A DNA stretch of 64,000 nucleotides from Clostridia bacterium. Its GTDB lineage: Bacteria > Bacillota > Sulfobacillia > SLMV01. The stretch is taken from NCBI GenBank assembly GCA_003552525.1, contig PUNF01000036.1:6552-70551 (forward strand). The letters are read 5' to 3'. Positions 10,592-62,759 of this stretch are shown piece after piece. The notes beneath the pieces were generated by a model. That model did no database searches, was not told the origin of the DNA, and saw nothing but the letters and a program-made list of their open reading frames with translations. Within the stretch, counting starts at the first letter, position 1. Each line of letters opens with the position of its first letter. Position numbers and translations under genes: made by a program.

Positions 10592-10683
10592 GAAATCACC
10601 CCATTTTCGGTTGCTAGCAAGTATAGCCGTGAGAAAAAGCTATACCTACAGGTGGCATTATACAATATCTTTGCCGAAGAATC

Positions 10684-44261: not shown

Positions 44262-45410
44262 CTAGCCCTCGATAATCTCCACATTTGCACGAGGCACCAT
44301 GACTTCGGTGCCGTCAGCAAGCCTGGCATTGAGCACGCGCACCCGGGTCTCGCTCTCGACAACCTGCAGCTCCGGGGGAAGCCCGGTGACCTCCGCGAGG
44401 GCGCCAAAATAAGGATCACGGATGATCCGGATGGGTGTTCCGACACCCAGGCCGCCACTTTCGTCCTCGTCCTCGGTATCCACATCCTCGGGGGCATCCC
44501 GCAATTGCTCGAGCATGCTGGCGTCCGGGCTAATGATCTCCGGCCGCATCACCCCTGCACGAATCTGCGTCGCACCGTTGAGGGAGGCCTCCTGCCCTTC
44601 CAGTTCTTGGAGGAGCTCGAACGTCTTATCCGCGATGCGCATCGGGCCGAAACCCTCGGTGATGATGAGCGTCAGCGGAATGTCCTCGTGTCCGGTAATG
44701 GCCACGCCGATATCATAGCCCAGGTAATCGATGAGATCGGCGTCCACGATACCACCCGAAACGAGACCGACCACGCCGACTTCCTCGGCGCGACGGAGAA
44801 TTCCGGCCGTGGCCACGCTGCCAACGACGACGATCTTACCCTCACAGCTGGCATCGAGCGCCGACGGCTCTATCCTTTCGTCGGGCGAAGATGCGACAAC
44901 CTTGATCGCGCCACGACGCTCGCCGCCGATACCGAAGATACCCTGGATGAAAGCCCCGGCGGTTTCGACGACCACGCCCTCCTCGGGCAAAACCCGGCGG
45001 ACGATTCCCTCCACGTAGGCCTCTACATCCAGTGGCGTCGGGGGCTCTCGCAATACCATCTGTCCACTGACATCGGAGATCATCTCGACGGTACCATCCA
45101 CTGGCGACATCTGCTCCGACTTGAATAGGCCGAAAAAGGATATCTTGCGCGCGATGACCTGCCCTTTCTCGACGGTCTCGCCCTCTTTCACCGTCACCAC
45201 GTCCGGCAGCTCGTAGGGTTCCACCGTTAACAGCTGCGAGATATTTACGCTAACGGGATCACCGGGAATCTCGGTCTTGGCGACGACGTCATGGGGCTGC
45301 ACCATGTCCCCGACTTCGACCGTCACCTCGCCTTTAATGGGAAGGCGGCGCGTCTTGCGAACGACCTCCCGGTTACTCACCTTCAGCCCCGGAGTATACG
45401 CATGAGCCAT
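44262..45410 (-). CDS. Module B partner protein: lipoyl/biotinyl-like N-terminal barrel plus an alpha/beta domain; paralog of 32983..34251
   Basis: 382 aa. N-terminal KGEVTVEVGDMVQPHDVVAKTEIPGD and VKEGETVEKGQVIA ... SPVDGTVEMISDVSGQMV are hybrid-barrel motifs. C-terminal KIVVVGSVATAGILRRAEEVGVVGLVSGGIVD ... LTLIITEGFGPM, plus an acidic EDVDTEDEDESGG linker. Its start abuts the upstream ATPase stop. Confidence 0.55.
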   Translation of the reverse strand: MAHAYTPGLKVSNREVVRKTRRLPIKGEVTVEVGDMVQPHDVVAKTEIPGDPVSVNISQLLTVEPYELPDVVTVKEGETVEKGQVIARKISFFGLFKSEQMSPVDGTVEMISDVSGQMVLREPPTPLDVEAYVEGIVRRVLPEEGVVVETAGAFIQGIFGIGGERRGAIKVVASSPDERIEPSALDASCEGKIVVVGSVATAGILRRAEEVGVVGLVSGGIVDADLIDYLGYDIGVAITGHEDIPLTLIITEGFGPMRIADKTFELLQELEGQEASLNGATQIRAGVMRPEIISPDASMLEQLRDAPEDVDTEDEDESGGLGVGTPIRIIRDPYFGALAEVTGLPPELQVVESETRVRVLNARLADGTEVMVPRANVEIIEG

Positions 45411-45411
45411 T

Positions 45412-47292
45412 TTATACCGCCCGCCCTTCCTCGATGTACTTCATGAGGGCGTCCATGGGATAAATATCGAGCGCCTCGATCCAGTTCCTGATCTGCTTGC
45501 GGCGATCGGCCTCCTCTTTCTCGAGAAAGACCGGGCGGCCGCGTGCATCGATGATCAGTCCGACGATTCCACCCTCGACTTCCACGTCCATGGCGCGCCC
45601 CGTGCCCTCGCCGACGTCCCAGCGGCGGCCGGGCTCCACGTGTGCCTGGGCAACGCTTCCCTCTTCGAGCGGGATCAACCGGATCTCGCCGAACCCGAGG
45701 GTCTCCACCCGCTCCGTGCCATCGGGCATGGTGAGCGTCACCTTGACCGGGGTGGAGTCGCGGAGGTTCTCCATCCTGATGCCTTCCTGGGGTACCGGGG
45801 CGATACTGCTCCCGAGGCACACCAGGCAATCGCGGTCGAAGACCTGCGCCGATGCCTCGGGATGCACCGTGGCCAAAACACCCAGCTGTGGCATCATAAA
45901 GATGCTGTCGACCGCCAGGCGCGTAACACCCTCGGGTTGGAAGGCATCCAGCATCATCAGTGCGGACTGCACGCGGCGCGGTGCGTGGGACAATACCCCA
46001 CCACTGCCGAGGATCATGCCGAGGGTCATCATGTTCACGAGCGTCGCACCGCTGACCTTCTGGTCAAAAGTATCTCCCATGTCTCGGGCCTGGCGAATAC
46101 CCTTCAAGCCGGTCGCCAGCGTCTTGTGGTGTTCGAACGCGAGGCGCAGGGCTTCCCGCGCAAGGGCCTGCTCCACCACGAGTTCCTCGAGGGAATGGGG
46201 AATCGTCGTCGGGCGAATCATCTTGTTGCGGATTCGGCTGCGAAGCGCCTCCTCCGATACGGACATGGGCAACCACCGGGAGATGCTGTCCAACCCGGTC
46301 TCCAGCAAAACGTTGCATATACTGTAGCTCATCCCGAGGTTGGCCGATACCGTGCGGTTGAAGGTGCCGGCGAACACACTGAAAACATCGGTGGTGGCGC
46401 CCCCGATGTCTACCCCCAGCACTTCCATCTTGTATTGCTTGGCGACGTTTTGGATACCCAGCCCGACCGCGCCCGGCGTCGGCATGATCGGGGCATCTGT
46501 CCAACCCATGAGCTTGTTGTACCCGGGTGCCTGGGCCATGACGTGCTCCATGAAGAGGTTGTGGATCTCCTCGCGCGCGGGTTCTAGGACCTCTTCTTCC
46601 AGTACGGGCCGTATGTTATCGACCAGGCGAAGGTCCAGGCTCTCTCCCAGTGTATCCCTGACGTGTCCGCGGGCGTCCTTGTTACCCGCAAAGATAACGG
46701 GCAGCTGGAAACCGATCCCGAGGCGCGGACGCGGATCCGCTGCGGCGATCAATTCGGCGATCTGGCTCACGTGGGCAATGGTGCCGCCATCCACACCACC
46801 GGACAGTAGGATCATATCCGGTCGCAATTGACGGATCCGGGAAATCTTTTGGTGTGGCAATCTCCCATCGTCTACCGAGATCGCATCCATGACGATGGCA
46901 CCCGCGCCCAATGCCGCGCGTTCTGCACTCTCGGCCGTCATCGTCTTCACGACCCCGGCCACCATCATTTGTAGTCCGCCACCGGCACTACTAGTGGAAA
47001 GATAGACGTCCGCGCCCTTCTCATCCGACGCCCGTGGTCGAATTACTCCCTCGGGCGCAAGGAGCGTCTTGCCGGAAAGTTCTTCCACCTCGGTCACGGC
47101 ATTGCGCACGCCCATGGTCACGTCCTCAAAGGGTGCTTCCACCGTCGTGGGAGCCTCACCGCGGACGATAAGCCGATACTCACCATCGCGCTTTTCGATG
47201 AGAATGGCCTTGGTGGTCGTACTTCCACAGTCGGTGGCGACAATAGTTTGGATTTGATCCTTTGGAATCTTCGTTACACCTTCCGTCGACAA
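45412..47292 (-). CDS. Module B EutA/MutL/DdrA-type ASKHA ATPase (reactivase-like family), 626 aa; paralog of 34241..36070
   Basis: IVATDCGSTTTKAILI phosphate-1 motif, MTAESAERAALGAGA, GGVDGGTIAHVSQIAELI, and second-lobe VLGVDIGGATTDVF. About 50% identical to the module A ATPase over most of its length. Start re-placed at TTG 47292, preceded by GGGAGGAGGAGAGG. Confidence 0.7.
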   Translation of the reverse strand: MSTEGVTKIPKDQIQTIVATDCGSTTTKAILIEKRDGEYRLIVRGEAPTTVEAPFEDVTMGVRNAVTEVEELSGKTLLAPEGVIRPRASDEKGADVYLSTSSAGGGLQMMVAGVVKTMTAESAERAALGAGAIVMDAISVDDGRLPHQKISRIRQLRPDMILLSGGVDGGTIAHVSQIAELIAAADPRPRLGIGFQLPVIFAGNKDARGHVRDTLGESLDLRLVDNIRPVLEEEVLEPAREEIHNLFMEHVMAQAPGYNKLMGWTDAPIMPTPGAVGLGIQNVAKQYKMEVLGVDIGGATTDVFSVFAGTFNRTVSANLGMSYSICNVLLETGLDSISRWLPMSVSEEALRSRIRNKMIRPTTIPHSLEELVVEQALAREALRLAFEHHKTLATGLKGIRQARDMGDTFDQKVSGATLVNMMTLGMILGSGGVLSHAPRRVQSALMMLDAFQPEGVTRLAVDSIFMMPQLGVLATVHPEASAQVFDRDCLVCLGSSIAPVPQEGIRMENLRDSTPVKVTLTMPDGTERVETLGFGEIRLIPLEEGSVAQAHVEPGRRWDVGEGTGRAMDVEVEGGIVGLIIDARGRPVFLEKEEADRRKQIRNWIEALDIYPMDALMKYIEEGRAV

Positions 47293-47365
47293 GCAGCCTC
47301 TCCTCCTCCCGGGTCCCCGGCGTGGTGCCGGGTGACCGGAGCATTTCACCCCAACCGCCGATTGC

Positions 47366-47752
47366 TCATCCTGCCGACCCCTCGGGGGGATCGTCTTTTC
47401 GCTCCTCCGCATCCTCAGATCGCCGCTCCGCCTTCTCCTCGGCAGCCCGCTTACGCGCTGCGCGACGCTGCTTCTCTTCTTCTTCGATCATTTCTTCAAG
47501 GCGCTCGACAAGGCGATCCAGGTTCTCTCGATCCTGAAGCAAATACCCAATTTCCGAGGCATAGGGATGCCCGGTGAAAAGGTTCGTAAACGGTGCCAGC
47601 ATGTGCATCCCCTGGCTGGTTACAAACGAAAGCGGGCGGAAACCGTCAAATAACATGATGGCGGGCGCGACCATCTCCCACTCGTAGATCCGCTGTGCAG
47701 CCCACTCGATCAATTCATCCCGTCTCTCGGGAGAAATATCATCTCTGCGCAC
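47366..47752 (-). CDS. Hypothetical protein with a highly charged (E/K/R-rich) C-terminal tail, immediately upstream of the module B ATPase
   Basis: 128 aa. A conserved-looking N-terminal region (EWAAQRIYEWEMVAPAIMLFDGF...) is followed by ERLEEMIEEEEKQRRAARKRAAEEKAERRSEDAEERKDD, a low-complexity charged tail. No family assigned. Confidence 0.4.
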   Translation of the reverse strand: MRRDDISPERRDELIEWAAQRIYEWEMVAPAIMLFDGFRPLSFVTSQGMHMLAPFTNLFTGHPYASEIGYLLQDRENLDRLVERLEEMIEEEEKQRRAARKRAAEEKAERRSEDAEERKDDPPEGSAG

Positions 47753-48042
47753 CGTGGCACCCCCTTCGAAAGGACTAAAAACGGGTAAGTCACTGCCTTA
47801 AATGATGGAGCCAATCTCGCGTAACCCGGGCCAACCCCTCCCAAGGGACGAATCCCGTAACGGACCTCTCCGGATCGGAGAATATCGAAAAAGCGGGCGG
47901 TAGCGCTCCCCGTCCAATCCTTTTTACCCGTTTCCCCTGCGGCAATGCAACCCCCGGCACCCGTCGTCATGGGAAAATCGTGTTTCGACACCGTTCGCCG
48001 TTTGCAGCCCGTAGGAAGGGGCGCCGCACATTCCGCAATGCG

Positions 48043-49290
48043 TCATCGGGATGCCGGGCTATCACTGCATACGACGTGGTTCAGCACAACGCCGGCCAAA
48101 AGCATCATGCCCACCTCGAGGGCTCTTTCGTCGATGTCGAATTGGGGGTGATGCACCGGGGGAGCGGGTGTCTCGGACTCCGGATTTGCCACGCCCAGGC
48201 CGATGAAACAACCGGGGACGCTTTCGCTGAAGTAAGAGAAGTCCTCGCCACCAATGCTCGGGGCATCCAGCGGGGAAAACGCGCCGGGACCGAGGTGTTG
48301 CTGGGCCACGCGACGCACCCGATCCACCAGGCCAGCATCGTTTTTCACCGCGGGATAACCCGTCTTGTAATGCACGGTGCCCGTCGCCCGCATGCTCGCG
48401 GCAACCCCGTCCACCAGGCGTTCAATTCTATCGCGAAGCACCGTACGCGTTTTTTCGGTCACGCACATCGCGGTACCTTCGATGCTCACCCTTGGTGCGA
48501 TAATGGTGTTCCGATACCCGCCGCAAATCTTCCCGAGGCTCACCGCCACCGGTTCGGACGGTGAGGTTTCGCGACTGACCAGCCCTTGCAGGGCGCCGAT
48601 GACCTGCCCCGCGACCACGATCGCATCCACCGCGCCGTGGGGCTGGCTCCCGTGTCCCGCGACACCATCGATATCGATCACGATCTCGTCGTTAAACCCC
48701 ACCACGACCCCGGCCCGCGTCGAAACGGTCCCGGTCGGCAGGCTCGGGTTGACGTGAAGTGCATACACCGCATCGACGGCGGGATTCGCGAGAACACCGG
48801 CATCCCGCATCGGAAGGGCACCTCCGTTGCCCTCCTCGTCGGGTTGGAAGATGAACTTGACGTTTCCTGCCAATGCACACCCCTCGGCACGCATGTTTGA
48901 CAATAGGCGCGCCACGCCGACCAAGATCGCGGTATGGGCATCGTGTCCACACGCGTGCATGACGCCCGGCCTGCGAGAACGGTATGATACATCCTTGGCA
49001 TCGGACATCGGGAGCGCATCCATGTCCGCTCGCAAGGCCACCGTCGGCCCGGGGCCGTCGCCCCGCAAAAGCCCCAACACCCCGTGGCCTCCCAGCCCCT
49101 GGGTCACCTCGAGACCCATTCGGTGAAGTCTCTGCGCAACGAGATCGGACGTATCCACCTCGTGACCGCCGAGCTCGGGGTACATATGCAAGTGCCGCCG
49201 AAACGCCCGGATGTCCTCCCCGATCCTTCGGACCCGCCGCAGCATATCCGCGCGGGAAAGATCGAATTCTGCAGGTCTACAATGATCCAT
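48043..49290 (-). CDS. M20 family amidohydrolase (aminoacylase / hippurate hydrolase-like)
   Basis: HACGHDAHTAILVG metal-binding motif and an M20D dimerisation domain. ATG at 49290 verified, avoiding overlap with the upstream paralog. Confidence 0.8.
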   Translation of the reverse strand: MDHCRPAEFDLSRADMLRRVRRIGEDIRAFRRHLHMYPELGGHEVDTSDLVAQRLHRMGLEVTQGLGGHGVLGLLRGDGPGPTVALRADMDALPMSDAKDVSYRSRRPGVMHACGHDAHTAILVGVARLLSNMRAEGCALAGNVKFIFQPDEEGNGGALPMRDAGVLANPAVDAVYALHVNPSLPTGTVSTRAGVVVGFNDEIVIDIDGVAGHGSQPHGAVDAIVVAGQVIGALQGLVSRETSPSEPVAVSLGKICGGYRNTIIAPRVSIEGTAMCVTEKTRTVLRDRIERLVDGVAASMRATGTVHYKTGYPAVKNDAGLVDRVRRVAQQHLGPGAFSPLDAPSIGGEDFSYFSESVPGCFIGLGVANPESETPAPPVHHPQFDIDERALEVGMMLLAGVVLNHVVCSDSPASR

Positions 49291-49366
49291 CAGCGCACCT
49301 TCCCGGGGCCAATCCCCCAATGCAACGCGAACGCCCATCACCTTGCGATGGGCGTTCGCGGACTCA

Positions 49367-50605
49367 TCATGATTCGCGAGAGAGATATGCCAGGGCCACA
49401 CCCGTCATGACCGTGACACCCGTGACCAATCCACCCTCGTCGATATCAAACTTGGGATTGTGATTGGGATATACCCCGAGGCCCTTCTCCGCATTGTGCA
49501 CGCCGAGGCGGAAGAAACAGCCGGGTACCGCCCGGGCGAAGTACGCGAAATCCTCCGCTCCCATGCTGGGCTCGGGGATATCGAGAACCGCGGACGGCCC
49601 GAGCAGCACACTCGCCGTATCGAAGAAAAGGTCCACCATCTCCCGGTCGTTCTCCAGTGGCGGATACCCCCGTTGGTAATCCAGGCGATAGTCCGCGCGC
49701 ATTGCCCCCGTGATCCCCGACAGGATCCCCTCTATTCGATCCTGCAGCATATCCCGCGTCTCATCGCTCAGTGATCGGATCGTCGTCTCCATTTTCACGT
49801 TGGGTGCGATGATATTGTTTCGGTATCCGCCCTCGATTCGGCCGACGGTGATGACGGCCGCGTCCGCAGGAGAAACCTCGCGGCTGACGATCGTCTGAAG
49901 AGCCGTGAGGGCCTGCGCCGCGACGATCACGCTGTCAACGGACTTGTGCGGATGCGCACCATGCCCGCCGCTTCCTATGATTTCGATGCGCGCCTCATCA
50001 GCGGCAGCGGTGATCACGCCACTGCGGGAACCCACGGTCCCGACCGCGTGCTCAACGCTGACGTGTAGACCGAACACGGCATCCACCACGGGGTCTTCGA
50101 AAGCACCCTCGGCCAGCATCGGTTCGGCTCCGCCCGGACCCTCCTCCGCCGGCTGGAAGAGGAACTTGACGTTGCCCTTCAAGGTCCTACCACAATCGGT
50201 AAGTTCTACCAGCGCCTTGGCAGTGCCCATGAGGCAGGCAGTGTGGGCGTCGTGTCCACACGAATGCATCTTGCCTTGCACACACGATGCGTACTCCACA
50301 CCGGTATCTTCATCCATGGGGAGGGCATCCATATCCGCGCGCAGGGCGACCGTGGGGCCATCCTGTGCCCCCCGAAGCAAGCCGATTACCCCCGTGGTCG
50401 CGACGGACTCTGTCACCTCGATGCCGAGTGCCCGAAGGAACGCGGCGACCGTGGCCGCCGTCTCAAATTCCTCCATGCCGAGCTCGGGATTGCGGTGAAA
50501 CGCACGTCGCAGTGCGATGACCTCGTCCGATAGGGCCTCGGCTTGACCACGTATCTCCCCCACGGTAACGGGACCGATTTGTCGGTCCTGATCGATTTCG
50601 CTCAC
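49367..50605 (-). CDS. M20 family amidohydrolase (tandem paralog)
   Basis: HSCGHDAHTACLMG motif; about 45% identical to the adjacent M20 gene. Confidence 0.8.
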   Translation of the reverse strand: MSEIDQDRQIGPVTVGEIRGQAEALSDEVIALRRAFHRNPELGMEEFETAATVAAFLRALGIEVTESVATTGVIGLLRGAQDGPTVALRADMDALPMDEDTGVEYASCVQGKMHSCGHDAHTACLMGTAKALVELTDCGRTLKGNVKFLFQPAEEGPGGAEPMLAEGAFEDPVVDAVFGLHVSVEHAVGTVGSRSGVITAAADEARIEIIGSGGHGAHPHKSVDSVIVAAQALTALQTIVSREVSPADAAVITVGRIEGGYRNNIIAPNVKMETTIRSLSDETRDMLQDRIEGILSGITGAMRADYRLDYQRGYPPLENDREMVDLFFDTASVLLGPSAVLDIPEPSMGAEDFAYFARAVPGCFFRLGVHNAEKGLGVYPNHNPKFDIDEGGLVTGVTVMTGVALAYLSRES

Positions 50606-50627
50606 GAGTACCTCCTCCTTCTCGGGA

Positions 50628-51470
50628 CTAGCGGCTCGAACACGACGCCAGGTAGATCATGGCACGCAGGCCACGATAGGCCGACGGCGCATCCTGGGCA
50701 GTATACTCTACCTCAACCGGGGACTTCCGCTCGGATCCGGGCAGCAGTCCCGCGAGGTCTGCCATGGCCGTATCCCTGGTTGTAAGCGCGACTGTGACCG
50801 GGGATTCGGACTTGGGTTCGGGGATTTCACCCGCCCCCAATGCCTTCATCGCCGCGGCCATTCCCTCGCGGATGGCCGCGCGCGCCGCCTCCGGCGGCAT
50901 GCACAATGCGGCATAGCGTCCCACATCTTCTTTGACGGCCGTGGTCACTGCGGACGGGTTTCGCTCCTGCACCTGGCGACACGTGGCAGTGTCACCGCTG
51001 GTGAATATCAGCGGGATCCCAAAGTGCGCGGCAATCGCGGCGTTGAGTCCCGCCTCCCCAACCTCCACGCCATTGAGCACGAGTCGCGATACCACCGCAC
51101 CGGAAATGGTATGGTTGAGCACCCCATGCGTTCCCGCCCGCGCATGGTATCCCACGAACGCAGCGGCGGCAAAACCATCCCGATCGTCGATCCCTTCCAT
51201 CTGCCCCATTAACTTTGGTGCGCCGGTCAACAGGCGGGCGGACGGGTGAATATCCTCGATGAGAAGGTTTCTCATGCCCCCGTGTCCATCATTGACGATG
51301 ACCTCGTCGGCTCCTCCATCCACCGCTCCCGCTACCGCTGCATTGACTTCCTCTGTCACGAGCTTGCGCGTCCGCGCGTAATCCGAGCCCCCGGCTCCGA
51401 CCTGGTCGCCATGGACCACGCCGCTGACACCCTCCAGATCGGCCGATATGTATATGCGTAACATATTCAT
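50628..51470 (-). CDS. dppA: D-aminopeptidase DppA (peptidase M55)
   Basis: MLRIYISADLEGVSGVV ... VNDGHGGM is the M55 signature; 280 aa. Confidence 0.8.
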   Translation of the reverse strand: MNMLRIYISADLEGVSGVVHGDQVGAGGSDYARTRKLVTEEVNAAVAGAVDGGADEVIVNDGHGGMRNLLIEDIHPSARLLTGAPKLMGQMEGIDDRDGFAAAAFVGYHARAGTHGVLNHTISGAVVSRLVLNGVEVGEAGLNAAIAAHFGIPLIFTSGDTATCRQVQERNPSAVTTAVKEDVGRYAALCMPPEAARAAIREGMAAAMKALGAGEIPEPKSESPVTVALTTRDTAMADLAGLLPGSERKSPVEVEYTAQDAPSAYRGLRAMIYLASCSSR

Positions 51471-52508
51471 CTACTCCCTTCCGGTGTCGACTCTCCCCTC
51501 GCGCAGGGCGAACCGGGGACGAATCACACCTACCGTGTCTCCGGGAAGGTTCTCGTTGGCGTGTACCCGGAACGCTTCCAGGCGATCTTGGTCTTCTCCG
51601 GACCACAATCCCATCTGCCGCGCCGTCTCGACGGCCACCATCCCGGCGGCCCGACCATCGCCGTCCTCGGTCTTCACCGCGATACCGATACCCGCTCGCT
51701 CATCACCGATACAATAGACCCCCGCCGCACCGCTCTTAGCCACGAAACGGCCGGAAGGCAATCCGTTGATCGCGGTGCAAATTCGACCGGTTCCTCCGAC
51801 CAGGAGCGGTTCTTCTCGCATCGCGATCCGCACTCCGCGTGCCGCGTCGGCACGTTGCGCGGGTAACCCGGAGCCGCTGGCCAATCGTGCGAACGCATAT
51901 GCCATGTGCATAATCGGAAGACCATGTACCACGACACCACAACCATCCGGGGCCACGGCAATGTCCGCCGCATCGATACCGGCCATACCCGCAACCACGT
52001 CCATGATGTAATCCTGCACCGGGTGTCCGACACGCCGGTAATTCGTGGGATCAAGACCGAGTTGCACGCAAAGTGCAAGCATGGCCGCGTGCTTACCCGA
52101 ACAATTGCAGTGGACTTCCCAGGGTTTCTTTCCGGCGGTGTACAATGCCTTGCGTGCATCCCGGTCGATGGGCGGATGGACCCCGCACTCGAGTAACCCG
52201 GGATCTACCCCGGCCTTCTCGAGGATCGCGTGGACTGCCTCCACGTGCTCGGGTTGACCGCTATGCGAGCCACATGCCACGGCAAGCTCCGACGCACCGA
52301 GCTGAAAGGCTTCAGCCGCACCGCTCTCGATGAGTGCCAAAGCCTGCAGGGGCTTGGCCGCCGATCGCATAAAAGTCACCAGCGAGGCATCGCCGGCAAA
52401 CGCCAAAACAGAGCCCGTCGTATCTACCACCGCAACAGATCCCCGATGGACGCATTCCACTAGGTCTCCCCGCGTCACTTCAACGAGGATCTCGGTTCTT
52501 TCGTTCAA
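51471..52508 (-). CDS. Asparaginase_II family protein (L-asparaginase II-like, PF06089)
   Basis: VEVTRGDLVECVHRGSVAVVD ... ACGSHSGQPEHVEAV matches the Asparaginase_II family pattern. Confidence 0.7.
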   Translation of the reverse strand: MNERTEILVEVTRGDLVECVHRGSVAVVDTTGSVLAFAGDASLVTFMRSAAKPLQALALIESGAAEAFQLGASELAVACGSHSGQPEHVEAVHAILEKAGVDPGLLECGVHPPIDRDARKALYTAGKKPWEVHCNCSGKHAAMLALCVQLGLDPTNYRRVGHPVQDYIMDVVAGMAGIDAADIAVAPDGCGVVVHGLPIMHMAYAFARLASGSGLPAQRADAARGVRIAMREEPLLVGGTGRICTAINGLPSGRFVAKSGAAGVYCIGDERAGIGIAVKTEDGDGRAAGMVAVETARQMGLWSGEDQDRLEAFRVHANENLPGDTVGVIRPRFALREGRVDTGRE

Positions 52509-53662
52509 CCACCATCGCTCCCCTCGCGTACCCGTTTTGTAATGTCCAGGACGGCCTCCACGGGCAGTCCCGGCGAAGCATTTCCATCCCGGCCGACGAC
52601 GGTGTCCGCCACGAAGAGACTATTGAGAACGGCCTCCTCGGTGCTCTCGACGGCAGCCCGAAACAACATGTTGATCCCCGGGTGTCCGTCGATGAAGACA
52701 TCCCTTCGTGCACGGTACCCCCCGAGATGGTGTCCGACGCGGTTGCGGGTGGAAAACGCCAAAAGGAAGTCGCCGCTCCCGTTGCTCGCGATCGATCCGG
52801 TACGTGCCAGGCCCAACGCCCCGCGCGCGGCGAGGCGACGAAGCTGACGGGCATCCAGGGGCGCATCGGTGGCGAGGATTACGACCACCGATCCGTCGCC
52901 CTCCGGGGCGACCGGCGGCGGTGGCAGCATGGCCCCCACCGGTGCACCGATCACGCGCAAATCCTCCCAGGCACCGAAGTTGCTCAGGACCAGTGCACCC
53001 AGTACGTAGTGGTCCGCGCCCTCCCAAAGTTCCTCGTCCCCGGCACCCCTCGGCACCTCGACCACGCGCGATGCGGTGCCGATTCCACCCTTGTGGCCAT
53101 AGCATCGCATTCCGGTGCCGGCGCCGACCACGCCCTCGTCGACACGACCCCCCGAGGCAGCGCGAAGAGCCTCGCAAACCGACTCGCGACCCACGTGGCG
53201 CCCCCGAATATCGTTGAGCTCCCCATCATTGCACTCGAGGACGACCGGGTTGATCGTACCGGTGTCCCGACCGGCCGACGGGTTCAAGCGAAGCATGTGA
53301 TCGAGGAGCGCATCGGCCACGCGACCGACACTCATGGTGCTGGTGAGCAATATCGGGCTCTCCAGTTCACCCAGCTCGCACACCTGGGGCAACCCGATCG
53401 CCTTTCCAAAGCCATTGAGGACGTGAACCCCGGCGGGAAACTTCGCCCGAAAGGGATCCCCGTCTCCGGGCATCACCGCGGTACAGCCGGTGCGAACTGG
53501 GCCCTGTCCGGGGAACAGGGGACCCTCTCCAGCCCAAAGCGTGCTGTGCCCGACACGCACCCCCGGGACGTCGGTGATGGCGTTGTGCATACCCGTCGGC
53601 ATTCCCGGGATATAGAGCCCCGCTTCCCGGGCGCGCGGTCTTGGGGCAGGGGGTCCGCTCAT
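52505..53662 (-). CDS. Peptidase S58 (DmpA / L-aminopeptidase D-Ala-esterase/amidase-like, Ntn hydrolase)
   Basis: NAITDVPGVRVGHSTL ... GTGMRCYGHKGGIGTASR are DmpA/ArgJ-fold motifs. ATG at 53662 verified, giving a 4-nt overlap with the upstream gene. Confidence 0.75.
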   Translation of the reverse strand: MSGPPAPRPRAREAGLYIPGMPTGMHNAITDVPGVRVGHSTLWAGEGPLFPGQGPVRTGCTAVMPGDGDPFRAKFPAGVHVLNGFGKAIGLPQVCELGELESPILLTSTMSVGRVADALLDHMLRLNPSAGRDTGTINPVVLECNDGELNDIRGRHVGRESVCEALRAASGGRVDEGVVGAGTGMRCYGHKGGIGTASRVVEVPRGAGDEELWEGADHYVLGALVLSNFGAWEDLRVIGAPVGAMLPPPPVAPEGDGSVVVILATDAPLDARQLRRLAARGALGLARTGSIASNGSGDFLLAFSTRNRVGHHLGGYRARRDVFIDGHPGINMLFRAAVESTEEAVLNSLFVADTVVGRDGNASPGLPVEAVLDITKRVREGSDGG

Positions 53663-54384
53663 CGTATCTCCCTCCCCTTCGGGCGGCAGGCATCTACGAA
53701 AGCCCGAAACAACGCAGCCATGATCGGCGAGGTCGCGACCATGTTCTCCGGATGCCACTGGACACCGATGACAAAACGTGCATCGGAACACTCGATGGCC
53801 TCGATGATGCCGTCCGGCGCTCGGGCCGCGATCACCATTCCGGTACCCAGTTCGCGCGCCGCCTGGTGATGTACCGTGTTAACGGCAACCCGGGATTGGC
53901 CCACGATATCCATCAACCGGGTCTCGCGCGCGACGGAGACCGTGTGGGCAGGATGCCAGCGGGGAGCCGTTTGGCGGTGTTGTAGCGCACCCCCGACCTG
54001 CGAACCGATGTCCTGGTACAGTGACCCTCCAACGGCCACGTTGAGAACCTGCAGTCCCCGGCAGATGGCAAAGATGGGTACATCCTTCTCGATGGCACGG
54101 CGCGCCAAGGCGAGTTCGATGGCATCCCGCTCCGGGCTCACCTTGCCCAGATCGGGCAGGGGTTCCTCGCCAAAGCGGGCCGGGTCGACATCCTCTCCCC
54201 CGCTGAGAAGCAATCCGTCGAGGCCCCCGAGGTATTCATCGGGCGAAGGCACTTCGGTCAATGGCGAAAATAGTGGTAGGAGCCAGGGTATTCCCCCGGC
54301 TCCCCGGACTGCCTCGACATAATCACGTGGGCAGTGAATCCTGGTCGTCTCGTAATTGATGCCGCAGGTTATTCCGATTCGCAA
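53659..54384 (-). CDS. Class I glutamine amidotransferase-like gamma-glutamyl hydrolase (peptidase C26, PuuD-like)
   Basis: MRIGITCGINYETTR ... FAICRGLQVLNVAVGG ... GVQWHPE, a Cys-His GATase1 triad; 241 aa. Confidence 0.75.
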   Translation of the reverse strand: MRIGITCGINYETTRIHCPRDYVEAVRGAGGIPWLLPLFSPLTEVPSPDEYLGGLDGLLLSGGEDVDPARFGEEPLPDLGKVSPERDAIELALARRAIEKDVPIFAICRGLQVLNVAVGGSLYQDIGSQVGGALQHRQTAPRWHPAHTVSVARETRLMDIVGQSRVAVNTVHHQAARELGTGMVIAARAPDGIIEAIECSDARFVIGVQWHPENMVATSPIMAALFRAFVDACRPKGREIR

Positions 54385-55385
54385 TCATCGTCACCACTTC
54401 CATGGGTATCGAGCAATATCTCCGGCCGGGCAAAGTTCGCGGGGAAACCGCCCGTGTGCCAGAAGAGAACGCGTTCTTCCGCGGCGATCCGCCCGGTGCG
54501 GATGTGATCCACCAGTCCTGCCAACGCCTTGGCCGTGTACGTTGGATCCGCCAGGATGCCCTCGGTCGCCGCCAGGAGGCGAATCGCCTCGATGCCGCCC
54601 TCCGTCGGTGCGGTGTATCCCTGCCCGACGTAGGAGTCATGGACACGTAGGAGTCCTGCGGCGGGGCCGGGATCCCAGCCCAGTAGCGCGGCCGTCCGGT
54701 CGATGAGATCTTCGGTCATCGCGTGAAGCTCTACAGAGGATCGGCTTACGCTCACCGTGTGAAGATGAACGGAAGCGTCGAGCTGCGCCAATCCCAGGGC
54801 CATTCCGGCCGCCGTACCCGCCGATCCCGAGGCCATGAATATGTGTTCTACCGCGAGATTCGCATCCGTCATCTGGTCGACCAGCTCCAGGGCCGCCTTC
54901 ACGTAACCCAGCGACCCCACCGGCACCGATCCGCCCAGCGGAATGACGTACGGTGTCTTTCCCTCCTCGCGAAGCCTTTGGGCGTGCTTTGCCATTTCGC
55001 CCTCGGCATCTTCCTCCGCGCAATAGTGCACCTCGGCACCGAAGAGCATATCCAAAAGGAGATTGCCCGATACCGCCCGGGGCGGTTCCCCCGTGAGAAC
55101 GAGGACGCAATCCAATCCGACGGTCGCAGCGGCCGCAGCCGTCATCCGGGCGTGATTCGACTGCACGCCCCCGGTCGTGATCAGCGCGTCACAGCCCCCG
55201 GCGAGCGCCTCACCCACCAGATACTCCAGTTTTCTCGCCTTGTTGCCCCCAAGACCCAGGGCCGTGAGATCATCACGCTTGATCCAGATATCCGGACCCT
55301 GGAGTCCGGCCGAGAAATTGGGGAGCCGATGGAGTGGAGTCGGGAGTGCGGCGAGCCGACACCTCGGAAACCGTGATAAGAACAT
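54369..55385 (-). CDS. PLP-dependent D-cysteine desulfhydrase / ACC deaminase family enzyme
   Basis: WIKRDDLTALGLGGNKARKLEYLV (PLP Lys) and GGVQSNHARMTAAAAA are typical of the DcyD/ACCD fold-type II family. Confidence 0.8.
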   Translation of the reverse strand: MFLSRFPRCRLAALPTPLHRLPNFSAGLQGPDIWIKRDDLTALGLGGNKARKLEYLVGEALAGGCDALITTGGVQSNHARMTAAAAATVGLDCVLVLTGEPPRAVSGNLLLDMLFGAEVHYCAEEDAEGEMAKHAQRLREEGKTPYVIPLGGSVPVGSLGYVKAALELVDQMTDANLAVEHIFMASGSAGTAAGMALGLAQLDASVHLHTVSVSRSSVELHAMTEDLIDRTAALLGWDPGPAAGLLRVHDSYVGQGYTAPTEGGIEAIRLLAATEGILADPTYTAKALAGLVDHIRTGRIAAEERVLFWHTGGFPANFARPEILLDTHGSGDDDCESE

Positions 55386-55402: not shown

Positions 55403-55753
55403 TCAGAAATCCATAAGACCAAGACTGATCATCAGCGCACGATCGATCCGCTCCATGGTATCCGAGCCCAGGTGGGCAACCTTTTCTTTCAACCGCCGCT
55501 TGTCGATCGTGCGGATCTGTTCGAGCAACACCACGGAATCTCGATCCATGCGATGGTCCTCCATGGTGAGTTCCACGTGGATGGGGAGCTGGGACTTGGC
55601 AATGCGGGAAGTGATGGCGGCCACGATCACCGTGGGGCTGAAGCGGTTTCCCACGTCGTTTTGGATGACCAAAACGGGTCGGATCCCCCCCTGTTCGGAG
55701 CCGATCACGGGGCTTAAGTCAGCAAAAAAGATGTCGCCCCTAAGAATCCGCAA
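55403..55753 (-). CDS. ndoA: MazF/PemK-family endoribonuclease toxin (EndoA/NdoA-like)
   Basis: 116 aa; [33 protein letters not shown]... is nearly identical in pattern to B. subtilis EndoA. Confidence 0.9.
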
Positions 55754-56030
55754 AGCCTCCCCCTCCCAGAAGATCTTCTAGGTGGATCCGGGAGCCTTCG
55801 TTCTCCAGTGGCAACATCGTCTCGGCAATGTTGAGATTGATTTCACCCATGTGCTCGTACCCGGAGCGTAGGGATTCACGGAGGCCGGAATCCCCACGGG
55901 TCCTTACGTAGGTTTGCATGGCATCGCCGATGAGTTCATCCCGGCTGCAATTCAATGATCGAGCAAGGTTGTCCAGCTGCTGTAGCAATTCCGCGTTCAG
56001 TTGCACGTTGATTTCTTTCGATTCACTCAT
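55740..56030 (-). CDS. ndoAI: MazE/EndoAI-like antitoxin (RHH)
   Basis: [23 protein letters not shown] ... [17 protein letters not shown] resembles B. subtilis EndoAI (…RRGYMEMAKINLNI…). Start placed at the internal Met; the 94-codon ORF-track extension is rejected. Overlaps the ndoA start. Confidence 0.8.
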
Positions 56031-57277
56031 TGCATGGATCCCTCCACGGAACGAAGGGCTTCGCCGTATCGAAGCAGTCTCGCACGACCCTGCAGACGGC
56101 CTCCGCGATAAAGCATGCGCGGCACACGGGGACCAATCCTCGTGAAGATCTCGTGGGCGATGGTGCCCAGTATGGTGGATAGTTCTTCGACGTCCACCGT
56201 TTCCCCTGCCATACTTCCCATGAGTACGACTTCTTCGCCCGGTTGTGGTGTCAGCCCGTCGGGGAGTAGGACCATGGTCTGGTCCATGCAGACCCTGCCG
56301 GCGATCGGACACCGCCGTCCCCGGATCAAGACCTGGCCCACACCGTGGGACAGGGCCCTGGGGTAGCCGTCGGCATAGCCCACCGGAAGTGTCGCCAGTG
56401 TTTGCGATCGTGTCGCGGTAAAAGCACGCCCGTACCCGACGGTATCACCGGGAGACAATTGTTTCACCTGCGCGATTCTCGTCTTCCATGTCATAAATGG
56501 CCTGACGGCCACGCTGCGACTCACCGTCTTGGACGGGTACACACCGTACATGGTAATACCGGGGCGCACCATTTCCATCGCTACGTCCGGGTAATCCAGG
56601 ATACCGGCACTGTTGCAAAGGTGGCGCATGGGAATTTGTATGCCGGCGAGACGGAGGCAATTACATAGGTGCATGAACGCGCGAATCTGATGGCGGGTAT
56701 AGGCGCGGTCTTCGTCGGCGACGGCAAAGTGCGTGAAGATGCCCTCGAGCCTGAGACCGGGCATGGAGGCGATTTCCGCGATTTCCGCGGTAGTCGAATC
56801 CGTGACGGGCATGCCGACGCGGAACATCCCCGTGTCGATCTTGACATGCACCACCGCAGTGCGATTCGCAGCCGTCGCGGCCCGGGATAACGCGCGGGCG
56901 TCGTCTACGTCAAACACCGTGAGGCCCAAGTCGGCCCGCACGGCCGCGGGCATCAATTCGGGTGGGGTCCATCCCAACACCAGTATGGGTACCTCGAATC
57001 CCTCCGACCGCAGGGCCAGTCCTTCGTCTGCAATGGCCACGGCCAACAAGTCCGCCCCGGACTGCAGGGCCGTTTCCGCCACGGGAATGGCGCCGTGCCC
57101 GTATCCCTCGGCCTTCACCACGGCCGCCATCCTGGCATCCCGCGCACCAAAGGCATCGAGGTGCGCGCGCATCCTCTGGACGTTCATGGCCAGCCCATCC
57201 AAATCAATCTCCAGCCAATTGGGCCGCAGACCCCCTGGGAAATCCCGCACACTCCCACCCTTTCTCAATTCATGCAT
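56027..57277 (-). CDS. alr: Alanine racemase
   Basis: AVVKAEGYGHG (PLP Lys) and the C-terminal beta domain. Start at the second Met (57277), giving an 8-nt overlap with nnr. Confidence 0.9.
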   Translation of the reverse strand: MHELRKGGSVRDFPGGLRPNWLEIDLDGLAMNVQRMRAHLDAFGARDARMAAVVKAEGYGHGAIPVAETALQSGADLLAVAIADEGLALRSEGFEVPILVLGWTPPELMPAAVRADLGLTVFDVDDARALSRAATAANRTAVVHVKIDTGMFRVGMPVTDSTTAEIAEIASMPGLRLEGIFTHFAVADEDRAYTRHQIRAFMHLCNCLRLAGIQIPMRHLCNSAGILDYPDVAMEMVRPGITMYGVYPSKTVSRSVAVRPFMTWKTRIAQVKQLSPGDTVGYGRAFTATRSQTLATLPVGYADGYPRALSHGVGQVLIRGRRCPIAGRVCMDQTMVLLPDGLTPQPGEEVVLMGSMAGETVDVEELSTILGTIAHEIFTRIGPRVPRMLYRGGRLQGRARLLRYGEALRSVEGSMQ

Positions 57278-59298: not shown

Positions 59299-61155
59299 CT
59301 ACTCCACGGTCACGCTCTTGGCGAGATTGCGCGGTTTGTCGACGGGACAACCCCGCATGACTGCCGTGTGATAGGCCAACAACTGTAGTGCCAGGGCGAC
59401 CAACACCGGGGAGAGTACCTCTGCGGTTCTGGGGATCGGGATGACCGCATCGGCGATGGCTGCGGTCCGATCCTCGGGCCGATCCGTCACGAGACAAATC
59501 CATCCGCCGCGCGCCCGAACCTCCTCGACATTGGACGCCATCTTCTCCCGAAGGTGATCCTGGGTAGAAATGGCGATAACCGGGATGTCCTGTTCGATCA
59601 AGGCGAGGGTCCCGTGCTTGAGTTCGCCGGCGGCGCAAGCCTCGGCGTGGATGTAGGAGATCTCTTTCAACTTCAGCTGGCCTTCCATCGCCGCCGCGAA
59701 GTCCAGTCCACGACCAATGAAAAATGCATCCTCCCAGGGGGCAAGATATCCTGCAACGCCCAGTACCGCTTCCTGGTCATCGAGCAGCCGTTCGGCTTCG
59801 CCGGGGAGGTCGGGCGCATGGGCCAAGACCGCCCGCATTCGCTGGGCGTTTTCCTCTCGCATGCCCCGCGTCGTGCCGAGGTGGCCGGCAATGAGGTCGA
59901 GGATCAGCAGCTGCGTGGTGTAAGTCTTCGTGGAAGCCACGGAAATCTCGGGGCCCGCACGGGTGAAGACCACGTCATCGACCCCCCGGGACAGGGAGGA
60001 ACCGACGACGTTGGTAATGCCGAGGGTGGGGGCGTCCGCTTGCTTCGCGAGATCCAGGCAGGCAAGGGTATCCGCGGTTTCTCCCGACTGGCTCACGAAC
60101 ACCACCAGGGAATCGGTTCCCAGTGCCGGATCCGCGTACCGGAACTCGGAGGCGATCTCTGCACGGGCGGGAATGCCGAGCATCCGCTCAAATTGCGGCC
60201 TGGCGGCGAGGGCTGCATGGTAGGAAGTACCGCACCCCACCAGATATACCTGGGACAGGCGGTCCACGATACCCGTGGTGTATTCCAGCTCGGGAAGGTA
60301 GACGGTATCGTCACCGATCCGTCCCTGTAAAGCCGCCACCCATGCCGCGGGCTGCTCCAGGATCTCCTTGATCATGAAGTGGGGATGTCCTCCGCGCTCG
60401 GCGTCCTCCGCATCCCAGTCCACCACCTCCACGGGGCGCTCCACTTCCTGCCCGGATTCATCGAAAATCGCATACCCGTTCCGGGTAAGAAGGGCGAAAT
60501 CACCGTTCTCGAGGATGACCACGTTCCGGGTGTATGGCAATACGGCGGCAATATCCGATGCGAGGAAGTACTCGTCTTCCCCGACGCCCACGATCAGTGG
60601 ACTTTCCCGGCGAACACCGACGAGCGCCTCTCCATCGTCCCCCTTGCCGGACTCGACCACGGCGAGGGCATAGGCTCCCCTCAGGTTGCGTACCGCCTCC
60701 ATGGTCGCCTCGAGCAGGTCCGCACCCGCATCGCGGTGGGTCTCCACCAGGTGCGGAATCACCTCCGTATCGACCTCCGAACGAAACTTGTGTCCCTCTT
60801 CGCGCAACGCCTGCCCGAGCTCAAAATAGTTCTCAATGATCCCGTTATGCACCACGGCCAGTGAACCGGTACAGTCGGTGTGCGGATGCGCATTGTCATC
60901 GCTGGGCGGTCCATGCGTAGCCCAGCGGGTGTGACCGATGCCCGCACCGGAGAACCGGGGCGGGTCTTCTTGTAATCCTCTCTGCAAACCGGTTTCAATT
61001 TCGCCCTGCCTCTTAATCACGTGCACCTGCCCGCCTGCCCGAGGAACCAGTGCAAGCCCGGCGGAGTCATAGCCCCGGTATTCCAGCCGCCGCAGCCCAT
61101 CCATGATCACATCCGTCGCACAACGCGGGCCGATATATCCAACAATGCCACACAT
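59299..61155 (-). CDS. glmS: Glutamine--fructose-6-phosphate aminotransferase
   Basis: MCGIVGYIG Ntn-Cys start, two SIS domains, C-terminal ...VTVE; 618 aa. Confidence 0.95.
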   Translation of the reverse strand: MCGIVGYIGPRCATDVIMDGLRRLEYRGYDSAGLALVPRAGGQVHVIKRQGEIETGLQRGLQEDPPRFSGAGIGHTRWATHGPPSDDNAHPHTDCTGSLAVVHNGIIENYFELGQALREEGHKFRSEVDTEVIPHLVETHRDAGADLLEATMEAVRNLRGAYALAVVESGKGDDGEALVGVRRESPLIVGVGEDEYFLASDIAAVLPYTRNVVILENGDFALLTRNGYAIFDESGQEVERPVEVVDWDAEDAERGGHPHFMIKEILEQPAAWVAALQGRIGDDTVYLPELEYTTGIVDRLSQVYLVGCGTSYHAALAARPQFERMLGIPARAEIASEFRYADPALGTDSLVVFVSQSGETADTLACLDLAKQADAPTLGITNVVGSSLSRGVDDVVFTRAGPEISVASTKTYTTQLLILDLIAGHLGTTRGMREENAQRMRAVLAHAPDLPGEAERLLDDQEAVLGVAGYLAPWEDAFFIGRGLDFAAAMEGQLKLKEISYIHAEACAAGELKHGTLALIEQDIPVIAISTQDHLREKMASNVEEVRARGGWICLVTDRPEDRTAAIADAVIPIPRTAEVLSPVLVALALQLLAYHTAVMRGCPVDKPRNLAKSVTVE

Positions 61156-61400: not shown

Positions 61401-62759
61401 TCATCCCAGTTGTCTCTTGACCACTTCCGCCAGTTCACCTGCAATGGTTTCGATGACATCGCGGCTCGGGCCCTCGATCAATACGCGCACGACCGGTTCT
61501 GTGCCGGAGGCCCGCACGATGATCCGTCCATCCCCACCGAGGCGTTCCCTCGCCTCCTCGATCGCCGCGGAGATGATCTCGTTGTCTTCGAGGCCCGCTC
61601 GATCCGACACGGGAACGTTCTTGACGATTTGCGGGTACTTCTCGAAATCCGCGACGAGGTCCGGTAGGGAACTGCCGGTGCGTACCTGTGCACGAGCCAC
61701 CGCCAACGCGGAGAGGATCCCGTCCCCCGTGGTGGCACAATTGCCGATAATGATGTGCCCCGATATTTCTCCACCGAGGGTGGCCCCGTCCTGTCGCATC
61801 CTGATCATGATCTCGCGGTCTCCCACGGGACACTGTATCGTGTTCAACCCCAGTGCGGAGAGGCACCTGGTGAGCCCGAGATTGTTAATCATGGTGGCGA
61901 CCACGGTGTCGCCCTCGAGGTCACCGGTCTCGGACATCTCCTTCGCGATGATATACAGGATATCATCCCCGTCGAACACGCGACCATCTGGGGCAACCGC
62001 GACGAGACGATCCGCGTCCCCATCGAGGGCGAAGCCCACGTCGTAGTCACCGGAGAGCATCATCCCCACCAGGGCCTCGGGCTGCGTGGAACCGCAGCCG
62101 ACATTGATATTCACCCCGTCGGGGGTATCATAGATCACCGTTACCTCTGCCCCCACCGATCGGAAGGCTGCGGGACCAAGCCGATAACCGGCACCGTTGG
62201 AACAATCCATTGCGACCCGCAACCCGTTCAAGGCGTCGGCGGACAACCCGAGGGAATTCCGCAGGTGCCGAAGATAGTCATACACCATTCCATCGCCACG
62301 CAGGTACCGTCCGAGGCCTGCCCCCGAGACCCGGGCAGGCTCGACACCCATTCGGCCTTCGATATCCACCTCATCTTCGGGGGATAGCTTGTATCCGTGG
62401 GCATCAAAGAACTTGATCCCGTTGTATTCGGGCGGATTGTGACTCGCGGAGATCACGATCCCCGCCAACGCACTCCGCGAACCCGATACTGCATGTGCCA
62501 CGGCCGGGGTAGGCACGACGCCCATGTCCACCATGTGAATACCCATGGAGGTCAGTGCCGCGGCGATTGACCCGGCGAACATATCGCCCGATAGACGCGT
62601 ATCGCGCCCGACGATCACCCGGGGATTCTCCGGCCCCTCGGTGTAGTCATCCTGCAAGAAGGCCATCGCCGCACGCACGAGATCGAAGGCAAGATCCGGG
62701 GTCAGCTCCACGTTTGCCACACCGCGAACCCCGTCCGTTCCAAACAATGTCGGTGCCAT
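61401..62759 (-). CDS. glmM: Phosphoglucosamine mutase
   Basis: MAPTLFGTDGVRG ... SASHNPPEYNGIKF (phosphoserine loop); 452 aa. Confidence 0.9.
   Translation of the reverse strand: MAPTLFGTDGVRGVANVELTPDLAFDLVRAAMAFLQDDYTEGPENPRVIVGRDTRLSGDMFAGSIAAALTSMGIHMVDMGVVPTPAVAHAVSGSRSALAGIVISASHNPPEYNGIKFFDAHGYKLSPEDEVDIEGRMGVEPARVSGAGLGRYLRGDGMVYDYLRHLRNSLGLSADALNGLRVAMDCSNGAGYRLGPAAFRSVGAEVTVIYDTPDGVNINVGCGSTQPEALVGMMLSGDYDVGFALDGDADRLVAVAPDGRVFDGDDILYIIAKEMSETGDLEGDTVVATMINNLGLTRCLSALGLNTIQCPVGDREIMIRMRQDGATLGGEISGHIIIGNCATTGDGILSALAVARAQVRTGSSLPDLVADFEKYPQIVKNVPVSDRAGLEDNEIISAAIEEARERLGGDGRIIVRASGTEPVVRVLIEGPSRDVIETIAGELAEVVKRQLG

Follow-up and report, generated by a model that had tools for sequence, protein, structure and literature searches.

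Seven minus-strand genes at 48043-55385 of a 64,000-nucleotide stretch of DNA from a Clostridia bacterium (the window; GenBank assembly GCA_003552525.1, contig PUNF01000036.1, positions 6,552 to 70,551) encode a packed set of peptidases, amidohydrolases and a pyridoxal phosphate (PLP)-dependent enzyme, and lie directly downstream of alr-mazEF. Six of the families recur in the same order in other Bacillota, around what appears to be a conserved core of two. We see an even chance that the genes form a dedicated cytoplasmic finishing operon for non-standard small peptides and amides. About half of this confidence falls to murein peptides specifically, whose salvage would be the most likely specific role.

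An ordered gene cluster behind alr-mazEF

From 5' to 3' the cluster runs PALP, C26, S58, AsnII, M55, M20a and M20b, that is, a PLP enzyme, a gamma-glutamyl-hydrolase-like protein, an N-terminal nucleophile (Ntn) hydrolase, a class-3 asparaginase-like protein, a DppA-type protein and two M20D proteins. The original prediction of seven co-directional genes of these families immediately behind alr-mazEF holds: all seven open reading frames (ORFs) are intact where it had placed them, Pfam confirms the family of every protein, and the mazF stop codon lies 17 nt before the first gene. The following junctions measure -16 nt (C26 and PALP overlap), -4 nt (the S58 start overlaps the C26 stop), -4 nt (AsnII and S58 overlap), 0 nt (the M55 start codon directly abuts the AsnII stop codon), +22 nt and +28 or +76 nt. 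Inspection of start codons and ribosome-binding sites (RBS) shortens two ORFs, S58 and the distal M20b, and finds a clear RBS before every cluster gene except C26 and M20b.

Co-direction alone is weak evidence for a unit, since almost every gene of the window lies on the minus strand. What raises the cluster above chance is the combination of tight or overlapping junctions and a gene order kept in other genomes, and on these grounds the genes behave as one unit, as had been proposed. The seven genes are probably one operon, and by the same layout they are probably co-transcribed with alr-mazEF or reached by read-through from it. A promoter and terminator scan of 47-58 kb had fewer matches than its shuffled controls. 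None inside the cluster is convincing: no coding-strand promoter-like site was found there, and terminator-like matches did not exceed the shuffle expectation. Rfam detected no riboswitch or leader near the cluster, its sole match in the window being a glmS ribozyme. The cluster ends in a non-coding gap of 290 nt (47753-48042, minus strand) with no strong terminator or stable fold (folding z = +1.4) and with a weak hairpin and U-run near 47895-47915. No signal peptide is visible by eye in the seven N-termini, so that the enzymes should be cytoplasmic. Horizontal acquisition was also considered and is unsupported by composition, the GC content of the cluster (0.61-0.645) being close to that of the window (about 0.62).

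Conservation of the ordered set

A neighborhood comparison of orthologues had been suggested as the check on the original prediction, and it turned out in its favor. Besides the gene neighborhoods of the closest relatives, the comparison took in 80 loci, the best of at least 594 found by a scan with an AsnII alignment that used one genome per species; homologues of all window proteins were located by tblastn. AsnII has thousands of homologues. Its exact sequence occurs elsewhere only on one 7.4-kb metagenome contig of the Joint Genome Institute (JGI), a lookup of the exact M55 protein sequence matched no record, and the closest AsnII relatives come from uncultured Bacillota metagenome-assembled genomes (MAGs) at no more than 72% identity.

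The gene order is strictly kept in other Bacillota at 42-75% protein identity. The ordered set PALP-C26-S58-AsnII-M55-M20 is carried by loci L001 (62-75% identity) and L003 (48-61%). L005 and L087 have the same order without M20; the L005 contig ends just past M55, and L087 has a DUF4438 gene at that point. Smaller versions are PALP-C26-S58-AsnII, followed by DUF4438, in a Symbiobacterium thermophilum assembly (L019), C26-S58-AsnII in L029, PALP-C26-AsnII-M20 in L002, and mazEF-C26-AsnII-M55-M20-Amidohydro_3 in L086. Five loci (L007, L026, L032, L036 and L042) have mazF-C26-AsnII only, and L006 has the same three genes with an M20 gene about 1 kb further downstream. In all these clusters the first gene lies directly 3' of mazF, or of alr where mazEF is missing. 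Gaps before it measure 6 nt (L087), 14 nt (L002) and 43 nt (L003), and other called genes are similarly close. The linkage to mazEF is kept without alr in L086, and the linkage to alr without mazEF in L005, L019 and L087 (for L019 and L005, the adjacency was read from tblastn coordinates). Calderihabitans shows alr-mazEF-C26-Amidohydro_1, with AsnII elsewhere in the genome.

Judged from these gene orders, the conserved core of the cluster is C26 and AsnII only, with nested subsets around it, a point that the original prediction had not seen. The six-gene form is, on the evidence of a rough neighbor-joining tree in which its AsnII sequences group together, a clade-specific elaboration. The terminal genes vary among relatives and include more predicted hydrolases (Amidohydro_3, Amidohydro_1 and a further gene of the M20/M28 family) as well as DUF4438. 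For the accessory genes Amidohydro_3 (L086), Amidohydro_1 (L090 and L026) and DUF4438, NCBIfam, PDB and Pfam gave nothing more specific than 'amidohydrolase'. The DUF4438 gene follows AsnII or M55 in the slot that M20 occupies in the window (L019 11048-11905, L029 about 11056-11917, L005 11979-12692, L087 10882-11745), and its product, which has no NCBIfam match, may be another member of the system. In L001, the closest relative with a long contig, tblastn shows alr-like (64%) and mazF-like (87%) sequences at 5798-7093, where the deposited gene calls have neither alr nor mazF but a gene of 226 aa on the other strand. Pseudogenes or MAG frameshift errors may explain the two sequences.

The second M20 gene does not belong to the conserved set. 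M20a (49367-50605, minus strand, 412 aa; Pfam Peptidase_M20 and M20_dimer, 1e-45) has orthologues in the same cluster position in L001, L002, L003 and L086, at 59-69% identity where measured. M20b (48043-49338, minus strand, 431 aa; the same two Pfam families, 2e-44) has no orthologue in the clusters of any relative examined. Its ORF spans 48043-49401, the likeliest start being ATG 49338 (431 aa, as in the JGI call) or ATG 49290 (415 aa). Its matches are one of 63% on a 1.7-kb contig and then the M20a orthologues of other clusters at 49-52%. From these comparisons M20b is a lineage-specific extra peculiar to this genome, which the original prediction of a tandem pair had not recognized, and it is an old paralogue, since apart from the 63% match its nearest relatives are the cluster M20a proteins of other genomes. 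A recent tandem duplication was ruled out, given that M20a and M20b are 48% identical and M20b is about equidistant from all cluster M20a orthologues.

Enzyme families and their catalytic residues

The first gene of the cluster (54369-55385, minus strand) encodes a 338-aa PLP enzyme of the D-cysteine desulfhydrase/1-aminocyclopropane-1-carboxylate (ACC) deaminase fold (Pfam PALP, 6e-56), with an ATG start and the RBS GGGAGGAGG. It passes the NCBIfam model for the D-cysteine desulfhydrase family (TIGR01275, 307.9 against a cutoff of 289.4), and scores below the equivalog models of DcyD (NF003030, 306.3/429), ACC deaminase (TIGR01274, 191.9/392) and CuyA (360.9/450). The nearest solved structures are the D-cysteine desulfhydrases 7ysk and 4d8t, and also PH0054. 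Its ...YT.. and HTGG motifs we take to be DcyD-like rather than ACC-deaminase-like.

The C26 protein (53659-54384, minus strand, 241 aa) is a class-I glutamine amidotransferase (GATase) resembling gamma-glutamyl hydrolases (Pfam Peptidase_C26 and GATase, 3e-64; PF07722, 217.1 bits). It scores below the equivalog model of PuuD, the gamma-glutamyl-gamma-aminobutyrate (GABA) hydrolase (NF008471, 132.6/266). The nearest solved structures are Listeria innocua Lin1909 (3fij, 1e-47), SpuA (7d4r) and PuuD (6vtv). The Cys-His-Glu triad is intact: the Cys of ICRG and the His and Glu of WHPE align with PuuD and SpuA, and the alignment places the triad His where the SpuA His-to-Asn mutant structure entries mark it. 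PuuD, SpuA and Lin1909 thus share fold and triad with C26; Lin1909 has no assigned function, and in contrast to the setting of PuuD and SpuA, C26 has no genes of polyamine or GABA pathways (puuA/B/C, spu) nearby. The start of the gene is TTG 54384. JGI calls the identical protein with 197 aa only (start GTG 54252), a call that is probably truncated at the N-terminus because relatives of 71% identity align across the full 241 aa.

S58 (52505-53662, minus strand, 385 aa) is an aminopeptidase-like Ntn-hydrolase protein of the DmpA/BapA type (Pfam Peptidase_S58, PF03576, 1e-109, 366.9 bits). The ORF spans 52505-53791, and the likeliest start is ATG 53662 behind a strong RBS, GAAGGGGAGGGAG. PH0078 of Pyrococcus horikoshii is the nearest structure (2drh, 2e-101), followed by BapA of Sphingosinicella and DmpA of Ochrobactrum anthropi (1e-55 to 1e-57). 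These proteins have the family and a self-processing Gly/Asn-Ser site in common with S58: its Gly-Ser self-cleavage and nucleophile site, GDG/SVVVILATDAPL, aligns with G249 and S250 of DmpA and S250 of BapA, GDG/S standing opposite RG/S in DmpA and KN/S in BapA, at the position marked by the BapA S250A mutant entry 3n5i. The specificity of S58 is not transferable from them, because PH0078 is uncharacterized, and DmpA (D-Ala amides and esters) and BapA (beta-peptides) differ in their substrates.

AsnII (51471-52508, minus strand, 345 aa) is a class-3 L-asparaginase-like amidohydrolase (Pfam Asparaginase_II, 1e-108) that matches PF06089 with 363.1 bits against a cutoff of 25 and covers profile positions 1-321 of 322. 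No NCBIfam model matched AsnII or S58. The nearest structures to AsnII are the Rhizobium etli asparaginases ReAIV (8cly, 9e-66) and ReAV (7os3). In ReAV, Cys135, Lys138 and Cys189 are the zinc ligands, and Ser48-Lys51 and Ser80-Lys263 form two tandems next to Arg47 (PMC12292245). In a 25-sequence alignment, R48, S49, K52, S81, C136, K139, H140, Y157, D188, C190 and K258 of AsnII are invariant. They match Pattern I and Pattern II of ReAV, so that AsnII retains Arg47, the two Ser-Lys tandems and every zinc ligand, K258 being equated with ReAV K263 by position only. AsnII thus shares Pfam family and catalytic residues with ReAIV and ReAV, but the overall similarity is only moderate and, unlike them, the Bacillota protein is embedded among peptidases or heads peptide-importer operons. 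For this reason its physiological substrate is possibly not free L-Asn.

M55 (50628-51470, minus strand, 280 aa) is a DppA-type aminopeptidase-like protein (Pfam Peptidase_M55, PF04951, 3e-91, 305.9 bits) that scores below the equivalog model of Bacillus subtilis DppA (NF058634, 212.7/430). DppA is also its sole solved relative (1hi9, 3e-49). In the alignment to 1hi9, the positions of the DppA metal ligands D8, E10, H60, H104 and E133 are all kept. Both M20 proteins pass the family model TIGR01891 (cutoff 153.75; M20a 387.9, M20b 331.4), and both miss the equivalog models of CpsA (cutoff 500; 390 and 339) and DoeB2. The nearest structures to M20a, which resembles amidohydrolases and carboxypeptidases, are ILL2, HmrA (4ewt), YxeP (1ysj) and the N-acyl-glutamine aminoacylase 6slf. 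Retention of the catalytic residues supports the prediction that C26, S58, M55 and AsnII are active enzymes.

The same families in other genomic contexts

The families of the cluster meet again outside the alr-mazEF neighborhood. A Sumerlaeota MAG (L012) carries S58-AsnII-M55 between unrelated genes. In Bacilli, the partners are importers: Sporosarcina aquimarina (L025) has the order AsnII-SBP_bac_5-DppB-DppC-DppD-DppF, a gene for a 325-aa protein, M55 and C26, and AsnII abuts Dpp/Opp-type importers in L014, L016, L022 and L081; genera with this arrangement include Paenibacillus, Neobacillus, Virgibacillus and, in another species or strain, Sporosarcina. M55-AsnII lies close to a Dpp system in an Oscillospiraceae genome. 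In Heyndrickxia (L089), a C26 homologue of 50% identity is followed by dppB-dppC-dppD-SBP5, a YkfC-type SH3b-NlpC/P60 gene and a further ATPase. In the Bacilli AsnII-Dpp operons, M55 is preceded by a conserved gene of about 325 aa (L025 16529-17506; also L081, L022 and L016) that follows the Dpp ATPase genes; it has a weak HTH_12 match only and no relative in PDB or NCBIfam.

Tight packing, fixed order and repeated re-association together argue that the genes work together on small peptides taken up by or generated in the cell. The original prediction of small-peptide catabolism is strengthened by the AsnII, M55 and C26 homologues that sit inside Dpp/Opp-type importer operons in Bacilli. Its link to the cell wall stands in part: the Heyndrickxia C26 that heads an operon of Dpp and YkfC-like genes speaks for it, and the absence of the classical murein enzymes from the cluster speaks against it. 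As to the non-ribosomal peptides that had also been suggested, neither the window nor the relatives showed genes for non-ribosomal peptide synthetases or related proteins. The 'D-' labels attached to several of the enzymes derive from distant characterized homologues.

Proposed function and its alternatives

On the reading to which we give even odds, the operon would convert small protease-resistant peptides and amides to free amino acids, ammonia and pyruvate. The division of labor, like the substrates, the stereochemistry and the co-transcription, is inferred, here from family chemistry. S58 as an Ntn-hydrolase and M55 as a binuclear-metal enzyme would act on di- and tripeptides or amino-acid amides and strip N-terminal residues of the Ala/Gly type, which may be D- or beta-residues. 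C26, as a Cys-His-Glu hydrolase, would cut a gamma-glutamyl amide bond, and the Ser-Lys/Zn enzyme AsnII would deamidate a carboxamide of the Asn, isoGln or amidated diamino acid type. The M20D enzymes would free an amino acid that is C-terminal or N-acylated, the PLP lyase of the DcyD family would take a beta-substituted (D-)amino acid to pyruvate and NH3, and the neighboring Alr would interconvert released D-Ala and L-Ala.

Murein-peptide salvage is the most attractive specific form of this finishing operon because the chemistry of the cluster together with alr matches the needs of dismantling an amidated stem peptide. A precedent is found in B. subtilis, where the ykf genes adjoin the dpp importer operon in an architecture tied to murein-peptide metabolism, and where YkfC is the gamma-D-Glu-diamino-acid endopeptidase of the proposed murein-peptide pathway (PMC2954226). 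The dppABCDE-ykfABCD region comprises a dipeptide importer, the D-aminopeptidase DppA and the murein-peptide enzymes YkfA, YkfB and YkfC; there, as here, an M55 enzyme of the DppA type stands beside enzymes for which a cytoplasmic role in taking stem peptides apart is proposed (PMC2954226), and the likeness extends to the homologues of AsnII, M55 and C26 inside Dpp-type operons of Sporosarcina, Virgibacillus and Neobacillus. Unlike dpp-ykf, however, the cluster lacks a transporter, an LD-carboxypeptidase (S66), an enolase-type epimerase and an NlpC/P60 endopeptidase (a YkfC-like query had no match anywhere in the window), and has instead C26, Asparaginase_II, S58, M20D and a DcyD-family lyase attached to alr-mazEF. 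The resemblance is therefore functional, by analogy only. A fuller version, which we regard as rather doubtful, would make the cluster a hitherto unrecognized cytoplasmic pathway by which many Clostridia-type Bacillota fully disassemble amidated stem peptides: C26 would replace YkfC/MpaA as a non-orthologous enzyme that cuts gamma-D-Glu-diamino acid, the 'asparaginase' would deamidate D-isoglutamine or amidated diaminopimelate instead of free asparagine, the L-Ala and D-Ala termini would fall to S58, M55 and M20D, the alr-mazEF promoter would drive the set, and loss of MazE under stress would raise cell-wall salvage.

Several observations weigh against a finishing operon. Five of the proteins match NCBIfam equivalog models, all of them below the cutoff, and because no member is an NCBIfam equivalog, all substrate assignments are extrapolations from homologues of about 30-50% identity. 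The cluster has no transporter, regulator, N-acetylmuramoyl-L-Ala amidase, LD-carboxypeptidase or L-Ala-D/L-Glu epimerase; the amidase, the carboxypeptidase and the epimerase all belong to known murein-peptide routes. The positional conservation may in part reflect inheritance and not function, because the cluster sits in the deeply conserved block cdaR-glmM-glmS-acpS-nnr-alr-mazEF ... tsaEBD. AsnII is solitary in most non-Bacillota loci. Further C26 homologues adjoin Amj in Effusibacillus and, uninformatively, an OTCase-like gene in Lihuaxuella, and in Geochorda subterranea (L088 7144-9798) a homologue of 53% identity comes directly after pxpB and pxpC and before tsaE, which hints that this C26 clade is linked to gamma-glutamyl/5-oxoproline metabolism in Limnochordia.

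The strongest competitor, possible although distinctly less probable than the finishing operon, is a general operon for scavenging nitrogen and amino acids without special D- or gamma-linked substrates. C26 would then be a glutaminase or a hydrolase of gamma-glutamyl amines, AsnII a true L-asparaginase, the PLP enzyme a deaminase of the Cys/Ser type, and S58, M55 and M20 ordinary di- and tripeptidases or aminoacylases, with Glu, Asp, pyruvate and NH3 passing to the central metabolism of a proteolytic Bacillota bacterium. Much in the families agrees with this: AsnII has all the residues on which L-Asn hydrolysis by ReAV depends, among them the Arg47 that holds the alpha-carboxylate, conjugates of L-amino acids are the substrates of the M20D relatives ILL2, YxeP, CpsA and the aminoacylases, enzymes of the DmpA family cleave peptides as L-aminopeptidases, and the Dpp/Opp importers linked to the Bacilli homologues carry ordinary peptides too. 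Ordinary peptides, however, go to ubiquitous enzymes of the PepA, PepT, PepV and PepQ types, which leaves six unusual families in fixed order unexplained. The steady linkage of the cluster to alr and the operon that the Heyndrickxia C26 shares with a YkfC-type murein endopeptidase also argue for more specialized substrates.

That the genes have no shared function, being unrelated hydrolases gathered at a permissive spot or separate metabolite-repair enzymes beside the repair enzyme Nnr, we consider unlikely. The flanking genes glmS, acpS, nnr, alr, mazEF and tsaEBD are housekeeping genes conserved across Bacillota, one strand holds nearly all genes of the window, and membership of the cluster is modular and variable, all of which would fit a loose collection. 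Against it stand the 4-nt start/stop overlaps and the 0-nt junction, an internal order that is identical across deep divergence, and the re-association of the same families outside the phylum and, in Bacilli, within Dpp operons. Least probable of all is catabolism of low-molecular-weight thiols of the gamma-glutamyl-cysteine type, like the DUG pathway of yeast, in which C26 would remove gamma-Glu, M20 split the Cys-X dipeptide and the DcyD-family lyase desulfhydrate cysteine: the combination of these three families and the 5-oxoprolinase subunits beside the Geochorda homologue, which belong to gamma-glutamyl-cycle chemistry, are in its favor, but we rank it low because PALP and M20 are dispensable next to the conserved core of C26 and AsnII, and it leaves AsnII, S58 and M55 without a role and finds no thiol-biosynthesis genes nearby.

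Flanking genes

The genes in front of the cluster are as closely packed as the cluster itself. alr (56027-57250 or 57301, minus strand; Ala_racemase_N/C, 1e-68 and 3e-45) encodes the alanine racemase. mazE (55740-56030, minus strand), recognized by a weak RHH_1 match and by 42% identity to its L003 counterpart, shares 4 nt with the alr stop and 14 nt with mazF; mazF (55403-55753, minus strand) has a PemK_toxin match of 3e-36. From this arrangement, mazEF is probably in the same transcription unit as the cluster. In Staphylococcus aureus mazEF-sigB, the genes downstream of mazEF are co-transcribed with it. The window is similar in having a functional gene set immediately 3' of alr-mazEF, and differs in that the downstream cargo consists of hydrolases and not of rsb/sigB regulators. 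The window has 48 sites for UACAU, the MazF cleavage motif, where 44 ± 7 are expected, and the coding strand of the cluster has 4. The motif is thus neither enriched nor depleted, and the counts give no sequence sign of MazF-coupled regulation.

Equally tight upstream of mazEF are alr, nnr (YjeF_N and Carb_kinase), acpS, glmS (59299-61155), glmM (61401-62759) and a YbbR/CdaR-like gene (62782-63990), these last three on the minus strand, with the glmS ribozyme (RF00234, 61211-61371, minus strand, 106 bits) upstream of glmS. The cdaR-glmM-glmS arrangement of Firmicutes is followed here, with no real gaps, by acpS-nnr-alr-mazEF and the hydrolase cluster. Past the 290-nt gap, a trio of minus-strand genes (44262-47752) encodes a 128-aa protein, a 666-aa protein of the GlmL/MutL family (PF13941) that scores below the NCBIfam GlmL cutoffs, and a 382-aa protein without a family match; a DUF483 protein comes next, and no glutamate or ornithine mutase genes lie nearby. 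The trio is also present in L001, L003, L019, L029 (two copies) and L087. The only peptide importer seen in the window is a Dpp/Opp-type ATP-binding cassette system (8576-12606, minus strand) made up of two oligo_HPY ATPases and an SBP_bac_5 protein of 640 aa; it adjoins gatA/gatB-like genes (5216-8300, minus strand) and lies about 36 kb away from the cluster.

Implications

Literature searches on the family combinations found no description of this cluster. What is new is the conserved ordered set and, within it, the proposed core of C26 and AsnII; peptide or murein-peptide catabolic operons made of known hydrolase families are known as a kind, and nothing mechanistically unprecedented is shown here. 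All seven families are biochemically known. The conserved order ties class-3 asparaginases, DmpA/S58 proteins, M55 proteins and the C26 proteins of Bacillota to one another and to alr, and thereby offers one testable hypothesis for the physiological roles of all of them, as does the embedding of their homologues in peptide-importer operons. With Symbiobacterium thermophilum, a cultured carrier of a subset of the cluster is at hand. If the cluster does serve murein-peptide salvage, it would fill part of a poorly known route of peptidoglycan-peptide recycling in Gram-positive anaerobes and thermophiles, and it would caution against naming the PF06089 proteins of Bacillota simply 'asparaginase'.

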